Shown here: in pieces, positions 5,782 to 43,258 of the stretch
Layout: the number at the start of each line of letters is the position of its first letter
Numbering within the stretch: position 1 is the first letter of the stretch
DNA from: an uncultured Gammaproteobacteria bacterium
Lineage (GTDB): Bacteria > Pseudomonadota > Gammaproteobacteria > JACCXJ01
Assembly (NCBI GenBank): GCA_963764725.1
Contig: CAVXTM010000010.1
Span: 96,001 to 160,000, forward strand
Direction of reading: 5' to 3'
Length of the DNA: 64,000 nt
The notes under the pieces: model-generated
The model's database searches: none
Seen by the model: only the letters and a program-made list of their open reading frames with translations
What the model was told of the DNA's origin: nothing
Made by a program: the position numbers and the translations under genes

Positions 5782-5904
5782 GCTCGATTTTCGCCGATCA
5801 AGTTGACGACGGTACGCCAACCAACGGAGCGCGAGGTGTCTCTGTCGAGTTCTTCAGCACTGCGCGCCGTCCTAGGACAGCACCACTATGACTATGGCCT
5901 TGTT

Positions 5905-5937
5905 TTCCCGGATTTCGCTTCGCTGCGTCCGGGCTAC
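5905..5937 (-). repeat. GTAG-type REP palindrome
   Basis: Minus strand GTAGCCCGGACGCAGCGAAGCGAAATCCGGGAA: GTAG tetramer plus a CCCGG/CCGGG stem. Confidence 0.6.
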
Positions 5938-6184
5938 GCCGGCTGTTTCGGTCGCGGACCTCGGCGACCGACATTCAGGACAAACACAAGCCTGGTCCAC
6001 GGCTATCCGCCGGGCAAGCACCGATCCCGGGATCAGGTCGATGCTCCAGAATAAAATTCATTCCTCGCGGTCTTCCCGTGGGCCCGGCGCGTTCCGTTCC
6101 GGATCGATAGACGTGAATAGCGGAGACCTCCATGAGGAGAGGCCAGGGACACGGGCGCGAAACGACTTGACGGCGGAAGTCATA

Positions 6185-8066
6185 TCAATGGCGTAGCTCC
6201 TCGAGCAGGTACCCCGCTTCGCTCGCGAGGTCGGTTGTGGCGGGGAAGAAACCGTTCGCCGTTGTCCACCAGTTGACGTAGCGGCGGAGCTGGCGTTCGG
6301 TTGATTCGAGCGGGAATGTGTCGCCACCGGATTGCTCCCGAACTAGAGCCTTCATTTCCGCCAGGGCGTTTCGGGCTGCGTCGACAGGCGGACTCTGACC
6401 GGCTAGCGGCGCGAGCAGGTAGATCTCGATCAACGAGCCGAGCGCCCAGATGACCGCGCTCGGCTTCTGCGTTCCTCTTGTCTATTTTCGCAGCGGTGAC
6501 CGCCGCGTGCCAGCGGCCGGGGTCCACTATGCGCCCGTCGAGAACGGCATCGAGCGACAGAGACTGGACGGCCGTCCAATGGTGCGAGAGGTTGCTCTCG
6601 GAGCCCCTGCCGGTACCAGTTGCGCGAACGTTCGAGTGCTGCACGCATCAGCTGGTGCCAATGCGCGGCGTCTCCCAGGCGCGCGCGCACAAAGCACAGC
6701 TCGGCCAGGCGCTTTTCGGCGCTTCCCAAGCAGACCCACATTCTCATCCAGGATGCCACTGCCGACCGGCATTTTCGGGCTCTTTCGAAAAGCCTTCGAG
6801 CGCCTCGATGCGTGCTCGCAGCTGCGTGGCCACTTGATCGAAGCGCGGCTGGATCCCTGTCGCCTCGCTTGACCATCTCATCGGACCAGCCCTGCATCAT
6901 CTTGAGCGCGGCCAGTACGCACTCGAGCCTGACGTCCAGGAGATGATCGGCGTAACCCTCTGGGAAGCCGCGCGTATCCCACGAGGCTGGCCCAGTCGTG
7001 ACCGGTCTTGTCGCGGCTCTCGTACAAGGCGACACGCGCGTTGTGTAGCGCGACTCTTACGTCCTTGCCACCGAGCAGTGCCTTGTAGAAGATCTCGACC
7101 ATCAGGGTGGACCCGAGCTTGGTGAACGGGAATTGCGAGGCGACGACAATCGGGAATCCCAGTTCGTGGAGCTCGTGGGCGATGCTGCGCTTCGAGGTGA
7201 TGGTGTTGGTCAAGTTGGCCGCGTCGCAGGTCGCCAGGGTGACTACGACCGCGTGACCGACCAGGGGAGCCAGAGCCTTCCCGAGTTCCTCCGGCGTCAC
7301 TTCAGGCACGCCTCCCTCTTCGATAGGTATCCCTATGCCGAAATGCTGGCTCGGCGCCTCCCCAACGGGTACTCCGTGCGCCAGCAGGTGCACGTGTGTG
7401 AAGGGCTTCTTCTTCTCCACCGCTTCGCGGCAAGCCTCTGCGAGCTTCTCGAGGGTCACCTCTGCCAATGTTGTCAGCACATCGTCGGACTCGGGCGTGT
7501 TGTTGGTTGCGTGTACCACTGGGATCCAAGGCTCCAAGACGGCACGCAAGGCGCTCTCGTGCTCCTGGGACGGTACGTCGGTGGGTTCCGACAGAGGGGC
7601 CCAGGCGTACAGGAACCGTGGAGTGGCTGGCCAGCGCGCGCGGTTCTCGGCGAAAGTGTGGCGTACGCGTCGCGTCAGCACGACCGCTGAATCGTTTCGT
7701 GCGAAGAGCGGTCGTCCCTCGCTGTCGGTGGCCGCCTCGAAGGGGAGGGCAGCCACCTCAGCGGGATTGACGACGAGGTCGAGTTGCAGAGGAAATGGGC
7801 CGCTGGAGATCTCGGTCAGACTGTTGGTCCCCAGCAGCTTGGCGGCAATCTCGCCGATTTGTTTCAACGCGGTTGCGCGCGCCTGTGCATCCTTCTCGTA
7901 ACGAAGGGCGATGATTAGTTTTAGAAAGCTCTCTTGTTCCAGCGGCGACCTAAACTCGCGTACGGGATACTCAGATCCGGCTGCAACAAGGTACGGGATC
8001 GCCTTCGCGCCATATACCCGTCTTGAGATTATTGAGGCGAAGAAATTCAAGAAGCAGTGAGCGCAT
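6185..8066 (-). CDS. CHAT-domain (caspase-like) protease with helical/TPR-like C-terminus, about 625 aa, multiply frameshifted
   Basis: RBS GGAGGAGG then ATG at 8066 (MRSLLLEFLR...). CHAT motifs ALPFEA, HVHLLAHG (catalytic His), VVTLATCDA (catalytic Cys), IVVASQF and HDWASLVGY. The C-terminal part can be threaded through ORFs 6430-7035, 6180-6644 and 6185-6433 via several frameshifts. Confidence 0.8.
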
Positions 8067-8126
8067 GTTCCTCCTCCGCCGCAGCCGGTGAGCACCGGCG
8101 TGCTCGTGGTGTGCGCGTCACGCTGG

Positions 8127-9194
8127 CTACCACTCGATCATGACACCTTCCGCGTCTGACCGAGGAAAGACTGTCGTGTAACCATGCTTCTTGCGGAGCG
8201 GCTTGCCGTCCCAAAACTCGTTGAACCTGGTCCGATAGTTGAACGTCAGTTCCGGCTCGGCGCCTCCCCATTTGATCACGCGCGCGATCGCCTGCCGGTC
8301 GGGGTGCTTGAAGTGGGCGCCGTTGGTCGAGAAGAGGTACCGCTTGCAGTCCAGCGCTTCGAGGAGCGCACGGCTGACGTTCGCCTTGCTGCCGTGGTGC
8401 GGCAGCTTGCAGGCGTCAACGGCGAGCTTGCCGCTCGTGCCGAGGCGCGTGATGGCCGCCGTCAGCACACCGGGATGGGCGTCGCCGGTGAGCAGTAAGC
8501 GGTGTCCATCAAACTCGGCGAGCACCGCGATGCTGCTGCCGTTGGCTTCCGCGGTATCCTCGGAGAACTTCTCGAGTGCAAGCTCGTCCACATCGAGTGC
8601 GCCGCCGAGCAGCTCGAAGCCTTCTGGCGACTCGACCTCCTCGGGACGCTTCATGGTGGGATCGAGCCCCGCCTTGCGGACCTCCTTCTCCCACTCTGGT
8701 TTCAGATCGGCCAGCTTGCCCGGAGTGGGCGACAGCAACGTCAGAACGAGACCGCCATCGAGCTCGACGCGTGGGAGCTTGCCCTCCGTAGGGACGACGA
8801 CTGCCTTCTTCCCGAAGGCGCAGTTCCACTTCATGCCTGGGTTGACCAGCATGTCCGTGAGCTTCTCGCCCTGGACCGGGCCGAGTGTGTCGAGGTTTTC
8901 ATCGGGGAGGTGTCGATAGCCGTTGAACCAGATGTCGTTTGCCTGGAAGCCCGTTTCCTTGTCTTCCAGGAGATCCAACACTCCCGCAATGTGGTCGGCG
9001 TCGATGTGCGTGACCATGAGCAGCTCGAAGCGGCGCTCCTTCTCGGAAAGCTCGCGGAGCTTGGGACGCAAGGCGCGCTTGTAGGTGCCCGTTGCCCCTC
9101 CGTCAATCAGGACCCGTCGCGGAGCCTTGGGATCGCCATATTCGATCCACAAACAGTCACCGTGTCCTGCGAGAAGCATTTCGATACTGAACAT
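8127..9194 (-). CDS. MBL-fold metallo-hydrolase (ComEC/Avs1a-like)
   Basis: GDCLWI, LIDGG, THIDADHIAG (HxDxDH), ANGSSIA, LLTGDA, KLPHHGS, FSTNG motifs; RBS AAGGAG. Confidence 0.9.
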   Translation of the reverse strand: MFSIEMLLAGHGDCLWIEYGDPKAPRRVLIDGGATGTYKRALRPKLRELSEKERRFELLMVTHIDADHIAGVLDLLEDKETGFQANDIWFNGYRHLPDENLDTLGPVQGEKLTDMLVNPGMKWNCAFGKKAVVVPTEGKLPRVELDGGLVLTLLSPTPGKLADLKPEWEKEVRKAGLDPTMKRPEEVESPEGFELLGGALDVDELALEKFSEDTAEANGSSIAVLAEFDGHRLLLTGDAHPGVLTAAITRLGTSGKLAVDACKLPHHGSKANVSRALLEALDCKRYLFSTNGAHFKHPDRQAIARVIKWGGAEPELTFNYRTRFNEFWDGKPLRKKHGYTTVFPRSDAEGVMIEW

Positions 9195-9432
9195 TGCATT
9201 CTCCTTTCGAGGAGGTCGACGGTGACCGCCCGAGCAAGCGACACCTTTGGACTCTTCACCTCCCCGACTCTCCAGTCTCGCATGTAGCGCTTCGAGAAGT
9301 GCAAAAGCACCCCCGACTGGACGTTGGTGGTACTGATGATGAAGTGGGGCTCATCGGGCAAAAAAGGGAAGATACAACTGGACCTGTTAGCTGTCAAACA
9401 CGCGGGTCCCGGGTCCCCGGATCGGGGAATTT

Positions 9433-9536
9433 TCGGGCCATTGCATCCTCGGCGCGCCTAGCAGGCCCCCTTCGGGTCCGGCCAGCTTCGCTGGCGCTCG
9501 GGTACTCGCCCCTGGGCCTGGCTTTCATTGGCCCGA
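9433..9536. repeat. Nested palindromic repeat containing family-B element (9442-9523)
   Basis: TCGGGCCA...TGGCCCGA inverted repeat enclosing TGCATCCTCGGCGCGCC...CCTGGCT, similar to 29765-29808 and 35161-35204. Confidence 0.6.
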
Positions 9537-9574
9537 GGCGCCAAGTTTCGGGACCAGTGGCAGTATCCAAGCCG

Positions 9575-10792
9575 CTAGGGTTTTGGCGGGAGAACATCTT
9601 TGATCGCCTCGAGGCGTAAGCGTCCGATCTCGCTGCCCAAGGCCCCGCCCGTGAGTCCCTGAGCGATGAGATCGCGAGCATCGACAGACTGCGCCGCACG
9701 CAACGCCCGGCGCAGGTACTCCGGCTGAGGGTAAGCGCGATCCTCGAGCCCGGTGCGCCCGCGGGCATCGGCTTCGCAGGCCGTGAGGAATTGCTCGAAG
9801 CGCTCCGGCCTTCGGAAGGCATCCAGGGCCTCGAGGGCCGTTAGCAAGGTCGCGGGCCGAAGCTCAAGGGCATGGTGACAATGGCTGTGATAGCGCGCGA
9901 CCAGCACGGCGAGATCGCGGTAGTCATTGGGGATGCGGTAGCGCTGGCAGAAGTCAAAAATGATCTCAGCGCCGCGTTCCTCGTGACCGCGGTGATGCGG
10001 CCATTGCTCTTGAGGGGTCGTCCCTTTCCCGAGATCGTGCACCAAGGTGGCAAAGCGCACGCGCGGATCTTCGCTCAAGCGCGCGGCCTGGTCTAGCACC
10101 AACATCACATGCAATCCCGTGTCGATTTCGGGGTGGTGGCGCGGCGGTTGCGGCACGCCGAAGAGCCGTTCGATCTCGGGAAAGAGCACAACGAGGGCGC
10201 CGCAGGTCCGTAGCGTATCGAAAAATAGGCGCGGTCGGGGCTCGGCGAGGGCACGGTCGAGCTCCGCCCACACCCGCTCCGGAACCAAGGCTTCGGTTTC
10301 CCCGGCCGCGACCATCTCGCGCATGAGCGCCAGCGTTTCCTCGGCGATCCCAAAACCGAAACGCGCAGCGAAGCGGGCGACTCTCAAGATGCGCACGGGA
10401 TCCTCGGCGAAGGCGGGCGAGACATGTCGGAGGATCCCGCGTTCCAGATCCGCGCGCCCGCCGTACGGGTCGATGATGCTCCCGTCGATGTCTTCGGCCA
10501 TGGCGTTGATGGTCACATCGCGGCGTTCGAGATCGGCCTCCAAGGAAACCTCAGGCGAAGCATGGAACACGAACCCCTTGTAGCCGGGTCCGACCTTGCG
10601 TTCGGTGCGAGCGAGCGCGTATTCTTCGTGGGTCTGGGGGTGCAGAAAGACCGGGAAGTCCTTGCCAACCGGGCGATAACCAAGGGCTAGGAGATCTTGC
10701 GCCGTGGCGCCAATCACGACCCAATCACAGTCCGAGACCGAACGGCCGAGGAGCTTATCCCGGACCGCGCCGCCGACCTTGTAGACTTTCAC
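9575..10792 (-). CDS. cca: Multifunctional CCA tRNA nucleotidyltransferase (with HD domain)
   Basis: GTG start overlapping the upstream stop; [53 protein letters not shown]. Confidence 0.95.
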
Positions 10793-11757
10793 CGCCGCCG
10801 TGCGAATGTTCGCAAGATCCGATAGCGCGCCCGCTGATGCCGCTTTTGCAGATACGCCGGGACCACCGCTTCGATCGCAACCGGATCGATACCCAAGGCC
10901 GCGAGCCCGCTCTCGCCCTGGCACACGCTCGGGACCTGCAGCGAGCGGTAATTATCCAAGGACATGGGCTTCCCCGGGATCTGTTCCAAGACCTGGGCCT
11001 GAAGATACGAGATTCTCTCGTTTAGCGGTATGATGCGGCGGCGTAGATGCAGGCACGTAGCTGTATATGAGACCAGCCTCTGCAGGGTGTATTCCTTCGG
11101 TCCGCAGAGATCATAGCGCCGTCCCGCCGTTGCCGGGTCCTCTAGCGCCCGCATGAAAGCCTCCACGACGTTGGTGACGTAGACCGGGGCAAACCGCGAT
11201 CGCGGGCACGCCAGAGGAAAGAAATAGGGGCTGAGCCGTAGCAACTGGGCGAAACGATTGAAGAAGCTATCGTCGGGGCCGAAGATCACCGAGGGCCGGA
11301 AGCTCGTGATCCGTAACCCCTTTCCGGCTGCCTGATGCACCAGATCCTCGGCCTCGCCTTTGGTCTTGAGGTAGTGGCTGGGACCGACTGTCGCGTCCGC
11401 ATTGAGCGCGCTCATGTGCAAGAGGCAGTGGACAGGATTGCTCCGGCAGGCTTCCACGACTTGACGCGCCAGATCGACGTGGGCATGGCGGAAGCCGCTA
11501 CCATCGTCGCCGCGCTCGTTGAGAATACCGACGAGGTTGATGACCGCATCGCACCCTGCAAGCTGGCGTGTCAGCTCGGCGGGATCGTGTACATCACTCT
11601 CGATGAGATCCAAGGTCGGGATCACGAGCAGCTCGCGGTGCCGTTCCCGCCGCCGGGTGAGCACGCGGATGCGGTAGTCTTGCCCGCCCAGGGCATTGAC
11701 GAGATGGCGTCCGACGAAGCCGGTGCCCCCAAGGATGGCAATGGTTTTGATGATCAT
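10789..11757 (-). CDS. Complex I NDUFA9-family NAD-dependent epimerase/dehydratase
   Basis: GGTGFVG Rossmann motif, [24 protein letters not shown]; typical slt-NDUFA9-cca context. Confidence 0.9.
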
Positions 11758-31008: not shown

Positions 31009-31252
31009 ACCGAGAATCGGAGGGCGCTTTTCGCCTGATTCTGGGTCAACGCGGAAACTTGTCTCGTCACGGCGAGATGGGTGAGAAACGCCTCGACCTC
31101 TGTCGCGCCCATGTCTTTCGGGTGCTTTTTGCCGTTGTACAGCACAAGCGCTTCACCCAATCCGTATACGCTTGCTCGGTGCGGATGCTATAGTTCTTCC
31201 GGCGGCACTTATCCCGCACCTGATCCAATAGCCGGGGTCCTCCATAACCCAT
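31005..31252 (-). pseudogene. intI: Truncated integron integrase (N-terminal domain only, with frameshift)
   Basis: RLLDQVRDKCRRKNYSIRTEQAYTDWVKR/(fs)YNGKKHPKDMGATEVEAFLTHLAVTRQVSALTQNQAKSAL, a characteristic IntI N-terminus. Divergent from the cassette array; catalytic domain missing. Confidence 0.88.
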
Positions 31253-31339: not shown

Positions 31340-31410
31340 CATCAAGCGTGTAAAAACCGTAAAGGCGCATTATAAAGCGCCATTTTAGGGTGGCTACTTT
31401 AAGTTGGTCG
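31340..31410 (+). promoter_or_regulatory. Putative attI region
   Basis: AT-rich region upstream of intI ending in ...ACTTTAA-GTTGGTC, where the first cassette starts. Confidence 0.5.
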
Positions 31411-31608
31411 GCGCGCAGCGCCGGGGCCACGGCTTTTAGAACGGGAGATGAGCATGGATAGGATCACAGGCCATGATAACCGCGATCGCGACGGCGCTAA
31501 GCGCGCGCCAACCAACGGAGCGCGCGTTGTCTCACGTCAAGTTGTCCGGCGCTACGCGCCGTCCAACTCTCGTTCGAGCGGCACCGCTCAACTCGCGCTC
31601 CGTTAGTT
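31404..31608 (+). repeat. Gene-less cassette, copy 1
   Basis: About 105-bp body plus attC, nearly identical to 37199-37379; no credible ORF. Confidence 0.75.
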
Positions 31609-33790: not shown

Positions 33791-33971
33791 ATATTGCCCA
33801 ACAAGGCGCTGCACCGGATGGCGATTCCGCTGCGCTTCATCGCCACCGGTGAGCGTGTCGTTGGTCGGCGCGCAGCGCCTGCGCCCTGGTCCATCGTCGC
33901 GGAATGGCCGCTATCGGCAGCATCAGCGTTGGTAGGATGCCGGCGTAGCCTAGCCTGGCCTGGAAAATTTC

Positions 33972-34562
33972 ATGCACCCGCTTTCGATCTTCTTTCTCGG
34001 CATCGCGATGTCAACCGATGCTTTTGCCGCGGCCGTCGGCAAGGGCGCCGCCATGCACAAGCCGCGCTTTTCTGAGGCGCTGCGCGCGGGCGTTATTTTC
34101 GGCACCATCGAGGGTGTAACCCCCGTCATTGGATGGCTATTAGGTCTGGCAGCGGCAAAGCACATCAGCGCGTGGGACCACTGGATCGCCTTCACTCTGC
34201 TGGGCCTTCTCGGCCTGCACATGATCTATGCCGGCTTCAAACCAGAAAGCGACGGGGGCGCTACTGATACCGCCAAAGGCAGACATGGCTTCTGGAGCCT
34301 AGCCGCCACCGGCCTTGCCACCAGTATCGACGCGATGGCGGTAGGTGTCGGCCTCGCATTTCTCGACGTGAACATTGGCGTCGTTGCGGTGGTTATTGGC
34401 CTGACGACGCTCGTGATGGTGACACTCGGCATCATGCTCGGCCGCATCCTAGGTAGTCTCACCGGAAAGCGTGCGGAGATCATCGGTGGCTTCCTGCTGA
34501 TCGCGATCGGTGCCACGATTCTGTACGAGCACCTATCTGCTCAGAATCGGAGTGTGCTTTGA
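33972..34562 (+). CDS. mntP: Manganese efflux pump MntP, copy 1; cassette
   Basis: [39 protein letters not shown]. Confidence 0.93.
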
Positions 34563-34912
34563 GTTGGAAGCGGGCTAACAGAAGCTATGCAGATGCCGCA
34601 TAACCAGTAAGGATTGAGACGACCATGGATGGTCGTTTCAATCCAATGTTCAAGAAGCCCGGTGTTGGGTGGGTTCTTTATTAAGGGGATTGCTTCGGTG
34701 AAGGGTGGGTGATGTGGTGGCTATGGGAATCGGGAGCTGGAGATAGCCGCAGTAGAGGGCGATCGGATCTGGGTGTTGGGTATCGTAATCGGATTTAGGG
34801 ACCTGTTAATAATGCCTTTCAGGGTGCGAATTAGGGGTCGCAGGCAAAGGGAGGCCGTGACCCGAAGAAAACACTGGGCGGTGCGGCGCGAGCGTTTGCA
34901 AGTTGCTATGGG

Positions 34913-36088
34913 CTACACATGGGCTGGGGATCGTGTCGAGCCGGGTGGTCTGAGGTTTGTGGGCATCCATGGGCGGCGGATGCGCCGTGAGCTATGGAAG
35001 CGGAGTCGTCCCCCGCAGGCCTGGCAGGTCGGTTGTGGCCGGGGTGGCAGTTCGACCTCCGGTACGGTCACGGTGAAGCCAAAGGCCAATTCGACTTTGG
35101 CCTTGAGATCTGCGATGGGCACCTTGGCGGTGGGCGACAGGAAGCCATAGTAGCGGACTCTGCATCCTCGGCGCGCCAAGCAGGGCCAATCCCTGGCCCT
35201 GGCTCTCATGAACCCGGTAGGCAAGACGTGCTGGAGGAAACGGCGGATGAACTCCAAGGCGTCGAGGGTCAGGGTCCGCAACCGAGCGCTGCCGGTTTTT
35301 TTGTAGGAGAAGGAGACCCGTCCGTCCTCGACCTTGAGGATGCGGTGATCCGAGATAGCCACCTTGAAGACGTAGGGAGCGAGATAGGCGATCGAAGCCT
35401 CGGCACGGGGTACGGCCTGGCAGTTGACGTTCCAGTCCTGCAGCCAGGTCTCCGAGGGGATCTGATCGAGCAGTCCGGCGGTGTGCATGAGATCGCGGAA
35501 CTTGCCGCGGAACAGCCGTGAGAGGGCTTTCACGGGCAAGAAGAAGGCGAGGCTTGAAGCATGCCAGGCGCCATCCTCAGCGGAAAGCGCCCCGCCCGGC
35601 ACGACGTAATGGATGTGTGGGTGATACTGCAGTTGCCGGCCCCAGGTGTGAAGCACGCCGAAGAAACCGGCTTGGTCGGCGTTGAGGAAGCGCGGATCGC
35701 GCACCAGCGTCTTGATGGCTTGAGAGGATGCCTGGAACAGTGCATCGTAGCCCAGTTGCTGGTGGCTACGCAGAAACGCGCGCAGGGGCTCGGGAACGGT
35801 GAAGGTGAGCATAAAGTGGTGGCCTGGCAGCTGGCGTTGGAGCTGTCGCTCGAGCCACTGCTGGGACTTGCGGTGTTGGCAGCCGGGGCAATGACGATTG
35901 CCGCAGGCGGCCGGAACGAGATGGTGATGGCCGCAGTCATCGCACTGATAGCAGACTGAGCCATAGGTCTCGGTGCGGCATTGACAGATGGCCTCGATGG
36001 TCTTTTTGTGCTCTCTGGGCATGGATTGTTCGTAGTGCTGGAGATATCCAGGGCCGTAGGTGCGGAAGATGTCATTGATGATGCCCAT
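34913..36088 (-). CDS. IS91-family (Y2 HUH) transposase
   Basis: Zn finger (CQC...CDDC...CGNRHCPGC), LHTWG, HPHIH (HUH), YLAPY (Y2), EFIRRFLQHVLP.GF, RYYG. Confidence 0.92.
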   Translation of the reverse strand: MGIINDIFRTYGPGYLQHYEQSMPREHKKTIEAICQCRTETYGSVCYQCDDCGHHHLVPAACGNRHCPGCQHRKSQQWLERQLQRQLPGHHFMLTFTVPEPLRAFLRSHQQLGYDALFQASSQAIKTLVRDPRFLNADQAGFFGVLHTWGRQLQYHPHIHYVVPGGALSAEDGAWHASSLAFFLPVKALSRLFRGKFRDLMHTAGLLDQIPSETWLQDWNVNCQAVPRAEASIAYLAPYVFKVAISDHRILKVEDGRVSFSYKKTGSARLRTLTLDALEFIRRFLQHVLPTGFMRARARDWPCLARRGCRVRYYGFLSPTAKVPIADLKAKVELAFGFTVTVPEVELPPRPQPTCQACGGRLRFHSSRRIRRPWMPTNLRPPGSTRSPAHV

Positions 36089-36089
36089 C

Positions 36090-36962
36090 TCAGAGTCCCT
36101 CCATCACCTGGTTGATGAGGGCCGAGGCGTTTTCCTGACCGGTCTGGGTCAGGTGCAGGTAGATCATGGTGGTTTCAAGACTGCTGTGGCCGAGGTAACG
36201 TTGGATGGTGCGGATATTGACGCCCGCTTCCAGGAGGTGTGTGGCATAGGAGTGCCTGAGAGAATGCACGCAGGCTTCTCGGGCTCGGATCTGGGCTGCG
36301 AACTTGGCGCGCCGGAAGGCGCCCTGCACCGAGCTTTTAGCCATGGGATGGTCAGCCGAGCGTGCGGACTTCGCATTACGCCCCATCGCCGGAAAGAGAA
36401 GTCTCGGGTTGCGGTGTGAAGCCCAGTGTTTGCGCAGGATGAGGAGGGTTGCTTGGGGCAGCGGGAGGAGGCGATCCTTGGAGCCTTTCCCGCGGTGGAT
36501 GTGCAACATCATGCGCTGGCTATCAATATCCCCCACCTCCAGATGCTGGGCTTCCTGCAAGCGCAGACCGCAAGCATAGACGGTGGCGAGGAAGGCGTAG
36601 TTATGCGGGGTGCGTACGCAGCCCAGGAGTCGGCGGACTTCTTCACGGCTGAGCACCGTGGGCAACTGTTGCTCGCGTTGAGCATGGATAAGCTTGAGCG
36701 TGTGCCAGTCGCGATGCAGGACATGCTCGAAGAAAAACCGCAGCCCGCTGTAGCAGATCCGCAAGGTCGCGGGTGACCAACGATCGACGTTACGCCGGTG
36801 GAGAAAATAGCGCTGCAGATCGTCCTCGGTGATCTGATCCGGGGTTTTATGGTAGAACTCAACAAGCATGCGCACGGCGCGGGTGTAAGCTTCTTGGGTG
36901 CGTTCGCCTTTACCGTTGAGCTGAAGGGCATTGATTGACTTCTGATACCAATCTTTCATCAT
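36090..36962 (-). CDS. Tyrosine recombinase (SAM-like N-terminus + catalytic domain)
   Basis: LPTVLSREEV, YACGLRLQE, GKGSKDR, HSLRHSYATHLLEAG, LGHSSLETTMIY; lacks the IntI-specific insertion. Confidence 0.93.
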   Translation of the reverse strand: MMKDWYQKSINALQLNGKGERTQEAYTRAVRMLVEFYHKTPDQITEDDLQRYFLHRRNVDRWSPATLRICYSGLRFFFEHVLHRDWHTLKLIHAQREQQLPTVLSREEVRRLLGCVRTPHNYAFLATVYACGLRLQEAQHLEVGDIDSQRMMLHIHRGKGSKDRLLPLPQATLLILRKHWASHRNPRLLFPAMGRNAKSARSADHPMAKSSVQGAFRRAKFAAQIRAREACVHSLRHSYATHLLEAGVNIRTIQRYLGHSSLETTMIYLHLTQTGQENASALINQVMEGL

Positions 36963-37198
36963 GGCCGTTCTCCTGTCATGGGGATGGGATGTCCGGAACC
37001 TTCCGCGGACCTCCGACAGGAAAACAGAGTTGACGTGAGGGCTAAAGGGCGACGGCCGATCAACCGCCGGCAAACCGAATTGCGACAGCCAACCTCAATG
37101 AACCGAATCTGCCGCGTAGCGGCTTACTTGAACATCCGCATGCACCTGACCGGATACAGCGCGCTTCGCCCGCTTTCGCCGGCAGGTGATGCGAGGTC

Positions 37199-37379
37199 GT
37201 TGGTCGGCGCGCAGCGCCGGGGCCACGGCTTTTAGAACGGGAGATGAGCGTGGATAGGACACAGGCCCTTGATAACCGCGATCGCGACGGCGCTAAGCGC
37301 GCGCCAACCAACGGAGCGCGCGTTGTCTCACGTCAAGTGGTCCGGCGCTGGGCGCCGCTCAACTCGCGCTCCGTTGGGG
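37199..37379 (+). repeat. Gene-less cassette, copy 2
   Basis: Near-identical to 31404-31608, with a shorter attC interior. Confidence 0.75.
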
Positions 37380-37431: not shown

Positions 37432-37722
37432 ATGGCAAAAACTCGCTTTGATTGGGACCCCGACAAGGACACAGAGAATCAGGGAAAGCACGGAGTCTCC
37501 TTCTCCCGCGCCCAATACGCTTTTGCGGACCCGCAGCGCGTGATTGCCAAGGACGAGACACACAGCCAGACCGAAGAGCGGTTCTATTGCTTTGGCGAGG
37601 TTGATGGTGGTGTGCTCACGGTGCGGTTCACTTACCGCGCTTCGGTTATTCGAATCATCGGCGCCGGTTATTGGCGCAAAGGAAAGGCGATCTATGAGCG
37701 CGAAAATCAAATACACCGATGA
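37432..37722 (+). CDS. brnT: BrnT-family toxin; cassette
   Basis: FDWDPDKDTENQGKHGVSF...EERF...VLTVRFTYR...IRIIGA. Confidence 0.9.
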   Translation: MAKTRFDWDPDKDTENQGKHGVSFSRAQYAFADPQRVIAKDETHSQTEERFYCFGEVDGGVLTVRFTYRASVIRIIGAGYWRKGKAIYERENQIHR

Positions 37723-37975
37723 ACCCCTTGGCAAGGTTCAGGTGGTTCCTGACTTCCTCCCTTCGCCGGCCGAATTGGCATTTCGTGAGGAAGGCGTGAA
37801 AGTAACTCTGGCTCTGAGCAAGAAGAGTATCGAGTTCTTCAAATCGGAGGCTACAAAGCATCACACTCAGTACCAACGCATGATTCGGCGGCTTCTCGAC
37901 GCTTATGTTGATGGCCAAACCCCAACCCGGCAGTCCACACGGACGCTGCGCGGAAAAGCCGCGCAGCGCCGGTGA
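37694..37975 (+). CDS. CopG/BrnA-like antitoxin
   Basis: DFLPSPAEL...KVTLALSKKSIEFFK...YQRMIRRLLD; overlaps the toxin 3' end. Confidence 0.85.
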   Translation: MSAKIKYTDEPLGKVQVVPDFLPSPAELAFREEGVKVTLALSKKSIEFFKSEATKHHTQYQRMIRRLLDAYVDGQTPTRQSTRTLRGKAAQRR

Positions 37976-39835: not shown

Positions 39836-40025
39836 ATATGCTGTCTACAAACTGTGCGCGCTAACCAACGGAGCGCGCGTTGTCTCACGTCAAGTTGTCC
39901 GGCGCTACGCTCCGTTATGCGGCATCTGGCGCCTGCGCCCTGGTCCATCGTCGCGGAATGGCCGCTATCGGCAGCATCAGCGTTGGTAGGATGCCGGCGT
40001 AGCCTAGCCTGGCCTGGAAAATTTC

Positions 40026-40616
40026 ATGCACCCGCTTTCGATCTTCTTTCTCGGCATCGCGATGTCGACCGATGCTTTTGCCGCGGCCGTCGGCAAGGGC
40101 GCCGCCATGCACAAGCCGCGCTTTTCTGAGGCGCTGCGCGCGGGCGTTATTTTCGGCACCATCGAGGGTGTAACCCCCGTCATTGGATGGCTATTAGGTC
40201 TGGCAGCGGCAAAGCACATCAGCGCGTGGGACCACTGGATCGCCTTCACTCTGCTGGGCCTTCTCGGCCTGCACATGATCTATGCCGGCTTCAAACCAGA
40301 AAGCGACGGGGGCGCTACTGATACCGCCAAAGGCAGACATGGCTTCTGGAGCCTAGCCGCCACCGGCCTTGCCACCAGTATCGACGCGATGGCGGTAGGT
40401 GTCGGCCTCGCATTTCTCGACGTGAACATTGGCGTCGTTGCGGTGGTTATTGGCCTGACGACGCTCGTGATGGTGACACTCGGCATCATGCTCGGCCGCA
40501 TCCTAGGTAGTCTCACCGGAAAGCGTGCGGAGATCATCGGTGGCTTCCTGCTGATCGCGATCGGTGCCACGATTCTGTACGAGCACCTATCTGCTCAGAA
40601 TCGGAGTGTGCTTTGA
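40026..40616 (+). CDS. mntP: Manganese efflux pump MntP, copy 2; cassette
   Basis: Protein identical to 33972-34562. Confidence 0.93.
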
Positions 40617-40966
40617 GTTGGAAGCGGGCTAACAGAAGCTATGCAGATGCCGCATAACCAGTAAGGATTGAGACGACCATGGATGGTCGTTTCAATCCAA
40701 TGTTCAAGAAGCCCGGTGTTGGGTGGGTTCTTTATTAAGGGGATTGCTTCGGTGAAGGGTGGGTGATGTGGTGGCTATGGGAATCGGGAGCTGGAGATAG
40801 CCGCAGTAGAGGGCGATCGGATCTGGGTGTTGGGTATCGTAATCGGATTTAGGGACCTGTTAATAATGCCTTTCAGGGTGCGAATTAGGGGTCGCAGGCA
40901 AAGGGAGGCCGTGACCCGAAGAAAACACTGGGCGGTGCGGCGCGAGCGTTTGCAAGTTGCTATGGG

Positions 40967-42136
40967 CTACACATGGGCTGGGGATCGTGTCGAGCCGGGT
41001 GGTCTGAGGTTTGTGGGCATCCATGGGCGGCGGATGCGCCGTGAGCTATGGAAGCGGAGTCGTCCCCCGCAGGCCTGGCAGGTCGGTTGTGGCCGGGGTG
41101 GCAGTTCGACCTCCGGTACGGTCACGGTGAAGCCAAAGGCCAATTCGACTTTGGCCTTGAGATCTGCGATGGGCACCTTGGCGGTGGGCGACAGCAAGCC
41201 ATAGTAGCGGTCTGACTGGCGCGCCAAGCAGGGCCAATCCCTGGCCCTGGCTCTCATGAACCCGGTAGGCAAGACGTGCTGGAGGAAACGGCGGATGAAC
41301 TCCAAGGCGTCGAGGATCACGGTCCGCAACCGAGCGCTGCCGGTTTTTTTGTAGGAGAAGGAGACCCGTCCGTCCTCGACCTTGAGGATGCGGTGATCCG
41401 AGATAGCCACCTTGAAGACGTAGGGAGCGAGATAGGCGATCGAAGCCTCGGCACGGGGTACGGCCTGGCAGTTGACGTTCCAGTCCTGCAGCCAGGTCTC
41501 CGAGGGGATCTGATCGAGCAGTCCGGCGGTGTGCATGAGATCGCGGAACTTGCCGCGGAACAGCCGTGAGAGGGCTTTCACGGGCAAGAAGAAGGCGAGG
41601 CTTGAAGCATGCCAGGCGCCATCCTCAGCGGAAAGCGCCCCGCCCGGCACGACGTAATGGATGTGTGGGTGATACTGCAGTTGCCGGCCCCAGGTGTGAA
41701 GCACGCCGAAGAAACCGGCTTGGTCGGCGTTGAGGAAGCGCGGATCGCGCACCAGCGTCTTGATGGCTTGAGAGGATGCCTGGAACAGTGCATCGTAGCC
41801 CAGTTGCTGGTGGCTACGCAGAAACGCGCGCAGGGGCTCGGGAACGGTGAAGGTGAGCATAAAGTGGTGGCCTGGCAGCTGGCGTTGGAGCTGTCGCTCG
41901 AGCCACTGCTGGGACTTGCGGTGTTGGCAGCCGGGGCAATGACGATTGCCGCAGGCGGCCGGAACGAGATGGTGATGGCCGCAGTCATCGCACTGATAGC
42001 AGACTGAGCCATAGGTCTCGGTGCGGCATTGACAGATGGCCTCGATGGTCTTTTTGTGCTCTCTGGGCATGGATTGTTCGTAGTGCTGGAGATATCCAGG
42101 GCCGTAGGTGCGGAAGATGTCATTGATGATGCCCAT
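40967..42136 (-). CDS. IS91-family (Y2 HUH) transposase, copy 2
   Basis: Near-identical to 34913-36088. Confidence 0.92.
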   Translation of the reverse strand: MGIINDIFRTYGPGYLQHYEQSMPREHKKTIEAICQCRTETYGSVCYQCDDCGHHHLVPAACGNRHCPGCQHRKSQQWLERQLQRQLPGHHFMLTFTVPEPLRAFLRSHQQLGYDALFQASSQAIKTLVRDPRFLNADQAGFFGVLHTWGRQLQYHPHIHYVVPGGALSAEDGAWHASSLAFFLPVKALSRLFRGKFRDLMHTAGLLDQIPSETWLQDWNVNCQAVPRAEASIAYLAPYVFKVAISDHRILKVEDGRVSFSYKKTGSARLRTVILDALEFIRRFLQHVLPTGFMRARARDWPCLARQSDRYYGLLSPTAKVPIADLKAKVELAFGFTVTVPEVELPPRPQPTCQACGGRLRFHSSRRIRRPWMPTNLRPPGSTRSPAHV

Positions 42137-42137
42137 C

Positions 42138-43010
42138 TCAGAGTCCCTCCATCACCTGGTTGATGAGGGCCGAGGCGTTTTCCTGACCGGTCTGGGTCAG
42201 GTGCAGGTAGATCATGGTGGTTTCAAGACTGCTGTGGCCGAGGTAACGTTGGATGGTGCGGATATTGACGCCCGCTTCCAGGAGGTGTGTGGCATAGGAG
42301 TGCCTGAGAGAATGCACGCAGGCTTCTCGGGCTCGGATCTGGGCTGCGAACTTGGCGCGCCGGAAGGCGCCCTGCACCGAGCTTTTAGCCATGGGATGGT
42401 CAGCCGAGCGTGCGGACTTCGCATTACGCCCCATCGCCGGAAAGAGAAGTCTCGGGTTGCGGTGTGAAGCCCAGTGTTTGCGCAGGATGAGGAGGGTTGC
42501 TTGGGGCAGCGGGAGGAGGCGATCCTTGGAGCCTTTCCCGCGGTGGATGTGCAACATCATGCGCTGGCTATCAATATCCCCCACCTCCAGATGCTGGGCT
42601 TCCTGCAAGCGCAGACCGCAAGCATAGACGGTGGCGAGGAAGGCGTAGTTATGCGGGGTGCGTACGCAGCCCAGGAGTCGGCGGACTTCTTCACGGCTGA
42701 GCACCGTGGGCAACTGTTGCTCGCGTTGAGCATGGATAAGCTTGAGCGTGTGCCAGTCGCGATGCAGGACATGCTCGAAGAAAAACCGCAGCCCGCTGTA
42801 GCAGATCCGCAAGGTCGCGGGTGACCAACGATCGACGTTACGCCGGTGGAGAAAATAGCGCTGCAGATCGTCCTCGGTGATCTGATCCGGGGTTTTATGG
42901 TAGAACTCAACAAGCATGCGCACGGCGCGGGTGTAAGCTTCTTGGGTGCGTTCGCCTTTACCGTTGAGCTGGAGGGCTTGAATGGATTTCTCGTACCAAT
43001 CTTTCATCAT
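42138..43010 (-). CDS. Tyrosine recombinase, copy 2
   Basis: Identical to copy 1 apart from two N-terminal residues. Confidence 0.93.
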   Translation of the reverse strand: MMKDWYEKSIQALQLNGKGERTQEAYTRAVRMLVEFYHKTPDQITEDDLQRYFLHRRNVDRWSPATLRICYSGLRFFFEHVLHRDWHTLKLIHAQREQQLPTVLSREEVRRLLGCVRTPHNYAFLATVYACGLRLQEAQHLEVGDIDSQRMMLHIHRGKGSKDRLLPLPQATLLILRKHWASHRNPRLLFPAMGRNAKSARSADHPMAKSSVQGAFRRAKFAAQIRAREACVHSLRHSYATHLLEAGVNIRTIQRYLGHSSLETTMIYLHLTQTGQENASALINQVMEGL

Positions 43011-43258
43011 GGAAGGTCTCCTGTCGTAAAGGGAATAGAAGTCCGGGAAGCTCCACGGACTACGACAGAAGAACAGAGTTGACCTGAAGGCTAAAGGCCG
43101 GCGACCGATGGGTATGAGACAAACCGAACTACGGCAACCAGGATCGGCAAATCGAATCTGCCGCGTAGCGGCTTACTTGAACATCCGCATGCACCTGACC
43201 GGATACAGCGCGCTTCGCCCGCTTTCGCCGGCAGGTGATGCGGGGCGTTAGACCGCAT

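Follow-up and report, generated by a model that had tools for sequence, protein, structure and literature searches.

An IS91-family insertion sequence with an integron-integrase-like recombinase and its probable homing to integron attC sites

The window analysed here is a stretch of 64,000 nucleotides from the genome of an uncultured Gammaproteobacteria bacterium (assembly GCA_963764725.1, contig CAVXTM010000010.1, denoted C10; the window is C10:96001-160000). Within an array of integron gene cassettes it contains a mobile element coding for a tyrosine recombinase and an HUH transposase. This element is very probably an insertion sequence (IS) of the IS91 family, belonging to a two-gene subgroup that homes to the attC sites of integrons, and the explanation as a whole, comprising its identity, its homing and its mechanism, is put forward with moderate confidence. 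The features of the first of its two copies in the window are listed below.

33972-34562, plus strand: mntP-type manganese efflux gene of the cassette with the interrupted attC, copy 1 (PF02659 Mntp, E 2.1e-49)
34598-34604, plus strand: R'' box GCATAAC of the interrupted attC, the break lying after or within AAC (sequence and fold)
34605-37133, minus strand: element copy 1, 2,529 bp (termini common to five full copies in the genome; contigs of the public run X2 skip exactly 2,529 nt)
34605-34654, minus strand: oriIS-like end, composed of a CAGTAA spacer, a 15-bp hairpin (34611-34625/34630-34644), AAT and the internal box GTTCAAG at 34648-34654 (hairpin detection, junction folds and covariation)
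34913-36088, minus strand: tnpA, 391 aa (PF14319 and PF04986, NF033538)
35160-35206, no strand assigned: 46-47-bp dispersed repeat, in frame in tnpA (missing from the copies on C7 and C15)
36090-36962, minus strand: tyrosine recombinase gene, 290 aa (PF00589 and PF13495)
37111-37133, minus strand: terIS-like end, composed of the palindrome GCCGC-GTA-GCGGC (37111-37123), TTA and the tip CTTGAAC (37127-37133), which serves as substitute R'' (sequence)
37134-37205, plus strand: remainder of the interrupted attC, with L'', loop, L' and R' GTTGGTC at 37199-37205 (sequence and fold)

The element is 2,529 bp long when the shared AAC is counted at its right end. The left junction reads GCATAAC|CAGTAAGG, with the break at 34604/34605 and GCCGCATAAC|CAGTAAGG as wider context. 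The right junction reads GCCGCGTAGCGGC-TTA-CTTGAAC|ATCCGCATGCACCTG, with the break at 37133/37134 and the wider context GCCGCGTAGCGGCTTACTTGAAC|ATCCGCATGCACCTG, which runs on to CAGGTGATGCGAGGTC and then to the R' box. The original prediction, made from the letters of the window, had described this break at the AAC of the R'' box, the hairpin on the right and the R' GTT, and these are read in the sequence as it gave them; its statement that no target duplication occurs beyond the shared AAC also holds. Removal of the element with one AAC restores a complete attC, as had been claimed, the rejoined flanks folding as an attC bottom strand. The target has the R'' and R' boxes, the L''/L' repeat and the two extrahelical bases of attC, in an array beside intI, the attC calls being heuristic. 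The gene strand of the element is colinear with the attC bottom strand, so that recombinase gene and tnpA, on the minus strand, are antisense to the cassette genes on the plus strand, again as predicted. The assertion that terminal inverted repeats are missing was overstated, since the tips CAGTAAG / CTTACTTG form a short imperfect inverted repeat, and the right tip CTTGAAC is exactly complementary to the internal box GTTCAAG. Two contigs of the public run X2, in which 34601 is joined to 37131 and 2,529 nt are skipped, with three ambiguous letters, represent the predicted empty attC with moderate support, the shorter side of the joint having only 20 letters. The public runs were available as assembled contigs, and parts uncovered in them were not counted as evidence.

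Both ends conform to the IS91 pattern. The gene strand opens with GTTC-AAG-TAA-palindrome and closes with hairpin-TTACTG, followed by the flank GTTA, which stands after all seven 3' ends of the window's element type. The terIS-like end on the gene strand is GTTCAAGTAAGCCGC, with the 14-nt core TTCAAGTAAGCCGC. The rules of the family, in the passages of PMC13181058 devoted to it, comprise lack of a duplication, a ter GTTC beside a palindrome, a target tetranucleotide beside ori, and circles in which ori and ter are joined. On the protein level TnpA is a Y2 HUH transposase with an IS91-type zinc-binding N-terminus (PF14319 Zn_Tnp_IS91, E 1.2e-27; PF04986 Y2_Tnp, E 1.2e-52), and it scored 354 bits against the model NF033538 "IS91 family transposase", the cut-off of which is 125; the domain matches thereby confirm the predicted pairing of a tyrosine recombinase with a Y2 HUH transposase of IS91 type. 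The stretches HPHIHYVV and YLAPYVF, which contain the HUH motif and the paired catalytic tyrosines (parts HPHIH and YLAPY), are conserved in the window, in the C7 copy and in six relatives. The TnpA of the window copies and of the C9 copy has an in-frame insert of 15 aa before KVRYYGF, originating from the dispersed repeat, while that of C7 is insert-free (376 aa). Contigs of runs X1, X3 and X5 pass from 35159 directly to 35206, i.e. without the repeat. Some 28 other places of the genome have a related repeat, and the second copy of tnpA in the window has the repeat at 41208-41250; it looks like the stump of a repetitive extragenic palindrome (REP) or a miniature inverted-repeat transposable element (MITE). 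In the C15 copy the 5' half of tnpA is degenerate.

The recombinase gene (domains Phage_integrase and SAM_4) stops 1 nt before the start of tnpA, and the two genes are predicted to be translationally coupled. Its best family match is the "integron integrase" model TIGR02249, with 180 bits, below the cut-off of 265, and among solved structures Vibrio IntI4 (2a3v) is closest, aligning in two stretches between which about 35 IntI residues are missing (query 171-196 stands opposite IntI 172-231). By score and by lack of this insertion the protein is to be classed, on its sequence, as IntI-like and not as an IntI. This agrees with the classification in bioRxiv 10.1101/542381, in whose relevant part the recombinases borne by IS91 elements constitute an "Integron-like" subgroup, described as the closest homologues of IntI and devoid of the IntI insertion. 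Among 53 distinct and diverse homologues, R134, K159, H233, R236, H259 and Y268 show a conservation of at least 97%, so that catalysis is under selection.

Further copies on other contigs, and the integron loci of the source genome, are as follows:

C7:102553-105040: element copy, 98-99% identity
C9:5976-9489: element copy, ~100% identity, interrupted by 984 bp
C15:168868-171355: element copy, 89% identity
C13:47763-48575: partial element copy
several contigs: solo element ends
C15:164702-165643, C7:99992-100918, C13:52921-53691, C12:400958-401382, C9:425-670 and C10:127014-127231: integron intI loci

TAAC-CAGTAAGG borders every full copy at one end and CTTACTTGAAC at the other, and the flanks differ between copies. 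When the flanks of the two C10 copies and of those on C9, C7 and C15 were rejoined, the bottom strands folded as hairpins, each with AAC...GTT at the base and, as expected of attC, a pair of single extrahelical bases that lie 6 nt from each other on the 3' arm. The five full copies and the partial one reduce to four independent full attC sites (C10, C7, C9 and C15) and the partial site on C13, and the independent insertions all stand at the identical base in one orientation. An intI gene or fragment is found on the same strand at 1.6-5.3 kb from each copy, or at 9.4 kb for the duplicated C10 copy; it is intact on C15, contains one stop codon on C7 and is partial on C13, C9 and C10. More attC-like hairpins surround the copies.

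The two copies in the window, on both of which the original prediction drew, are not independent insertions. The segments 33875-37201 and 39929-43249 constitute one 3.3-kb duplication that includes the mntP cassette, with 98.1% identity over 3,332 columns. One might suppose that there is no real targeting, the element surviving only in dispensable arrays, which tolerate insertions, or a single event having been duplicated. This is hardly credible in view of four full sites and one partial site with different flanks but the same nucleotide and orientation in this genome, of 35 further or overlapping sites in other phyla with the same pattern, and of the case in a class 1 integron described below, which conforms to it too.

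The relatives were collected by a scan with the recombinase, one genome per species, in which 496 of 597 candidate stretches were confirmed; the best 80 loci, which come from many phyla, were kept, and most relatives are metagenome bins. The tnpA gene follows the recombinase gene directly in 69 of the 80 loci; of the 11 exceptions, nine are truncated by a contig end. An exact gene-strand terminus TTCAAGTAAGCCGC is present in 51 of the 80 loci and one with a single mismatch in five more, the motif being kept down to about 41% identity of the recombinase. From these loci 59 distinct insertion sites (one a spurious motif hit) were obtained, which with four from the source genome gave 63. The sites were judged by the pairing of 30-nt arms within the AAC...GTT frame, compared with 300 shuffles per site, and by this arm-duplex test 35 of the 63 qualify as attC-like with p<=0.05, of which 27 reach p<=0.01; without two multi-copy Nitrospirota genomes the proportion is 35 of 44. 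In these two genomes all 19 motif hits failed the test, of which one is spurious and one is cut by a contig end, leaving 17 full copies. Insertions that are not attC-like sit at ATTN/GTTN tetranucleotides. A test on the whole flank, in which the constrained folding energy of 145 nt was compared with that of dinucleotide shuffles, is powerless in GC-rich DNA (p=0.23 for the window's own site), and the arm-duplex test was used in its stead.

Of the 35 attC-like sites, 31 have the bulged bases on the insertion-side arm and 26 have a 5' spacer longer than the 3' one, and both features give one fixed orientation. Arrays of attC-like hairpins surround loci of Rokubacteria, Chromatiales, Planctomycetota and Opitutaceae, and not those of Nitrospirota; IntI genes are present within 6 kb at three loci (L026, L060 and L064). 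The predicted targeting of the R'' AAC/GTT in antisense orientation stands for the four full sites and the partial one in the source genome and for 35 of 63 sites in the family.

A relative is carried by the Escherichia coli IncC plasmid NZ_LT985243.1, where the order of genes is intI1, aac(6')-Ib3, aadA2, cmlA1, aadA1, the element pair (annotated "IS91 family transposase" and "site-specific integrase"), qacEdelta1 and sul1. The element lies antisense to the cassettes in the attC after aadA1 of this class 1 integron; on its gene strand an attC-like hairpin extends up to one junction, and GTTAGAC with the end of aadA1 follows the other. Among plasmids it was found in the source record and, as a 234-nt end fragment, in a Shewanella plasmid only, and no match was obtained in the complete E. 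coli genomes searched. A copy in a Photobacterium plasmid showed no obvious attC at its insertion site.

The ends of the element themselves resemble attC. The R'' box and the left end fold as an attC-like site (34598-34654), and the right tip with the remainder of the attC (37127-37205) folds as attC with -21.1 kcal/mol, in keeping with the proposal that the TTGAAC of the tip leaves a pseudo-R'' and a foldable hybrid site. When the two ends were joined computationally, 13 distinct elements or junctions folded into an attC mimic, which consists of an R helix between the internal box and the gene-strand terminus, spacers of 3 nt and 6 nt, and a hairpin of about 15 bp. Three types of R box were found, GTTCAAG/CTTGAAC, ATTCAAG/CTTGAAT and GTTGAAC/GTTCAAC, linked by two-sided compensatory changes at three positions, and these changes indicate that the pairing of internal box and terminus is selected. 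The two partners are adjacent only in the circle.

A mimic with R boxes, spacers and L hairpin could in principle be handled by the integron integrase of the host like a cassette, through rare top-strand recombination and with the element's own recombinase uninvolved; IntI genes are present in the source genome and beside some relatives, and the IS-bearing cassette has apparently moved as a cassette. Such an origin is very improbable. The insertion is at R'' and not at the G|TT of R' used by IntI, consistently across phyla, and the element carries its own conserved IntI-like enzyme. Moreover, the 17 copies in the two Nitrospirota genomes have flanks with 0-2 attC-like hairpins per locus beyond the element's own end and without an IntI match beyond the element's recombinase.

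Those 17 Nitrospirota copies are informative about the crossover point, as the flanking triplets track the element type. ATT precedes elements of the ATT type (5' side) in 11 of 11 cases and follows them (3' side) in nine of 11, and GTT is found 3' of the GTT-type element in six of six. The first base of the triplet is equal in element and target in 16 of the 17 insertions, and three junctions are unequal (L036, ATT/GTT; L042, ATT/AGT; L035b, ATT/AAT). The unequal junctions hint at an exchange between the first and the second base of the triplet, G|TT. For IntI1 the relevant part of PMC2811028 likewise states that only the first base of GTT has to be identical between the recombining sites. 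It was also observed that the Nitrospirota bin L035 contains tandem elements, one of the GTT and one of the ATT type (5862-8294 and 8500-10930), which are 80% identical and about 200 nt apart.

A mechanism may be proposed as follows. The HUH transposase would nick beside oriIS, next to the flanking (T)AAC, as in IS91, and rolling-circle replication would peel off one strand, closure taking place at the terIS tip. In the single-stranded circle the ends would meet and form the compact attC mimic, with the R box CTTGAAC x GTTCAAG, asymmetric spacers and the 15-bp L-like hairpin. The mimic and a folded attC would then undergo a single-strand exchange by the recombinase, with cleavage at AA|C (G|TT on the opposite strand) as for IntI. 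The cut would fall on the top strand of the attC, in its 5' R box, giving the mirror image of a normal cassette insertion, and the product would be resolved by replication, R' and the substitute R'' staying in place. Where no attC is available, entry would occur at ATTN/GTTN tetranucleotides, probably by the transposase alone. We infer the rolling-circle replication by the HUH protein from its family membership; integration by the element's recombinase into the folded top strand is plausible. The division of labour as such, with a single-stranded circle made by the HUH enzyme and integrated by the recombinase, has close to an even chance of being correct.

Several points weigh against this account. 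The 17 full Nitrospirota copies and nine other sites are not attC-like though the recombinase is present, so that insertion of homologues at generic tetramers, which the original prediction had named as contrary to it, was found in part, at ATTN/GTTN. A strict single-hairpin rule passes only 14 of 57 sites, a lower bound from a rule that is specific and misses long or branched loops. No circle junction was seen among the assembled contigs of the public runs, and the position G|TT rests on three junctions, each of which might equally have arisen by point mutation or from a target that departs from the consensus. It is uncertain whether the window copies, with their TnpA insert, and the C15 copy, with its degenerate tnpA, are active. 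Finally, the ends obey the IS91 rules, with ter GTTC and palindrome and with GTTA at ori, for which a recombinase is not strictly needed, and according to the part of PMC13181058 concerned with transposition the TnpA of IS91 alone inserts a single-stranded circle of the bottom strand.

The last two points belong to the main and serious rival explanation, homing by the transposase only, which is judged the less likely of the two. The Y2 HUH enzyme would perform both excision and insertion as in IS91, reading a folded AAC x GTT beside a hairpin as its own oriIS with the flanking tetranucleotide, a shape that attC copies by chance, and the recombinase would be accessory, for instance in multimer resolution, better termination or precise excision. 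The internal box might then act as a guide, as in IS200/IS605. The Nitrospirota insertions outside attC, at ATTC, ATTA, ATTT and GTTN, accord with this, the target triplet being equal to the element's ter triplet. So does the ORF (open reading frame) upstream of tnpA in IS91, the stop of which overlaps the tnpA start and which is, in the section of PMC13181058 on it, a regulator improving the precision at terIS. On the other hand, the conservation of the catalytic residues of the recombinase in diverse homologues speaks for a role of its own, and it is the closest relative of the sole enzyme known to recombine folded attC. In the literature found, IS91 members that lack a tyrosine recombinase are not reported in attC; IS91, IS801 and IS1294 are described, in the portion of PMC13181058 dealing with them, as targeting bare tetranucleotides. 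The junctions of L036 (5' ATT, 3' GTT, internal box AAC) would require an extra mutation if cleavage took place outside the triplet.

Integration by the recombinase, the reading preferred here, may be set against the systems already described. With IS91, IS801 and IS1294 the element shares the Y2 HUH enzyme with zinc-binding N-terminus, the lack of a duplication and unlike ends with subterminal palindromes; with IS91 it also shares a ter cleavage at GTTC that resembles the target tetranucleotide at ori (here GTTA) and an ORF coupled upstream of tnpA, which in IS91 is orf121 in the corresponding part of PMC13181058. Unlike orf121, the upstream ORF here codes for a predicted IntI-like tyrosine recombinase with intact catalytic residues, insertion is mostly at a single base of folded attC sites and not at any GTTC/CTTG, and the joined ends form an attC mimic kept by covariation. 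With IntI the recombinase has in common the best family and structure matches, the break in the AAC/GTT triplet and the first-base identity rule as stated for IntI1 in the part of PMC2811028 mentioned above. It differs from IntI in a score below the family cut-off and the lack of the ~35-aa insertion, in the break in R'' and not R' with the top strand as presumed substrate, and in travelling with a transposase and not with attI and a promoter. Elements of the IS200/IS605 group have an HUH enzyme and single-stranded hairpin ends, cleavage sites and targets being read by internal guide pairing. The internal AAC/AAT box matching the target triplet is an analogy only, as those enzymes are Y1 and not Y2, no recombinase is present and the target logic is another.

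Gene pairs of this kind are labelled "site-specific integrase" and "IS91 family transposase" by PGAP. The IS91-family entries of ISfinder with an upstream integrase gene (ISShvi3 and similar names) are alike in the two-gene layout. In the parts of PMC9229058 that concern IS elements, ISShvi3 and IS91-like elements are reported from the variable regions of Shewanella integrons in three cases, one of them "adjacent to an attC site", and it is stated that no IS was found interrupting attC sites, which suggests that the targeting went unrecognised there. For annotation, IS91-type genes "adjacent to" attC may be better read as insertions into attC. Full-text literature searches, outside of which lay ISfinder/TnPedia, subscription journals and supplements, gave no description of attC targeting or of an attC mimic for IS91-type elements.

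Insertion near the attC 5' end, antisense to the array, is described in the relevant part of PMC3001079 for IS1111-attC elements (ISPa21, ISPst6) and group IIC-attC introns and is shared by the window element. The enzymes differ, being an IS110-family transposase in IS1111-attC, reverse transcriptase and ribozyme in the introns, and HUH transposase with tyrosine recombinase here, and neither of the two known groups is described as carrying an attC mimic. Neither ORF of the element matches an IS110/IS1111-family transposase, so membership in IS1111-attC was rejected. A group IIC-attC intron was ruled out, as the Rfam scan of the window at gathering thresholds gave 0 matches and the ORFs are a recombinase and a transposase. 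A gene cassette was ruled out as well, the element being at R'', antisense, and with its attC-like structure split between the two ends.

The element would thus represent a third, mechanistically distinct class of attC-homing elements beside IS1111-attC and the group IIC-attC introns, distributed from Chromatiales to Planctomycetota. As the nearest known relative of IntI combined with a self-made attC mimic, it would show the minimum needed for recognising and recombining folded attC DNA. Entry into resistance integrons is possible, as seen from the relative after aadA1 on the IncC plasmid, and with a foldable hybrid attC the insertions may travel with cassettes or alter the expression or mobility of downstream cassettes. 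It is tempting to speculate further that the recombinase borne by IS91 elements is a minimal IntI, devoid of the IntI-specific domain, acting on folded single-stranded hairpins and choosing the attC top strand, and that elements and integrons share their ancestry. We consider this unlikely; if it were true, IntI and the attC fold would descend from, or would have given rise to, a rolling-circle IS recombinase and its folded end-junction, and the origin of the integron recombination module would become directly testable.

The remaining features of the array in the window are as follows:

31014-31231, minus strand: intI remnant (fragments) heading the cassette array (TIGR02249, model positions 1-73 only)
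40026-40616, plus strand: mntP gene of the duplicated cassette, copy 2 (duplication alignment)
40659-43182, minus strand: element copy 2, 2,524 bp, in the same attC of the duplicated cassette, with tnpA at 40967-42136 and the recombinase gene at 42138-43010 (duplication alignment)
43183-43253, plus strand: remainder of the interrupted attC, copy 2, with R' GTTAGAC at 43247-43253 (sequence)

The surrounding region is a cassette array; the neighbours on the plus strand are small and unrelated (DUF4145, a short-chain dehydrogenase, MntP, BrnT, RibD_C, the second MntP and TspO). The R' GTT of the interrupted attC is the exact end point of both duplicated units, and the presence of the IS-bearing cassette in two such units fits its continued use by IntI. 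At the start of copy 2 of the duplication stands its own R'' region in reverse complement, as expected of an integrated cassette. The first 14 nt of copy 1 derive from another cassette type, namely the non-coding cassette of ~168 nt described below. The 81 differences between the duplicates cluster at the left boundary, at the edge of the repeat in tnpA and in a patch at 36924-37103. About 55 of them are packed into the ~180 nt of this patch, upstream of the recombinase gene (36924-37103 versus 42970-43150), where copy 2 agrees with the C15 variant, pointing to recombination between copies of the element. In the simplest case the element-bearing cassette was duplicated first, and element copies later exchanged sequence; separate insertions into two identical attCs are conceivable as well.

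Some further observations were made on the source genome. It contains at least 5-6 integron loci in 4.2 Mb, an unusual number for a small genome, with one intI intact, one with a stop codon and the rest partial or fragmentary. A 984-bp insertion (C9:6183-7166; L008:1708-2691) disrupts the C9 copy at a distance of 210 nt from the left end; it encodes a DDE-transposase-like fragment with the stretch YKLRWQIELLFKEWKS, probably of the IS4 type. A second pair of Y2 transposase and recombinase (C13:51388-52494) immediately adjoins the C13 intI on the opposite strand; it lacks the conserved end motif and may belong to a different subgroup. Solo or variant ori-end hairpins after a (C)TAAC-type box occur at C10:72910-72966, C18:182881-182960, C1:111686-111723, C5:118351 and C5:80402-80544. 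Such solo left ends are not deletions made by IntI, as element sequence is retained beyond the internal GTT. The non-coding cassette of ~168 nt, with its own attC-like hairpin, is repeated in the window at 31403-31569 and 37199-37365 with 94.6% identity, and its first 55 nt recur after attCs on C7, C13, C15 and C2. Between the two mntP cassettes, at 37432-37975, lies a cassette consisting of a BrnT-family toxin gene (PF04365) and an overlapping downstream ORF.

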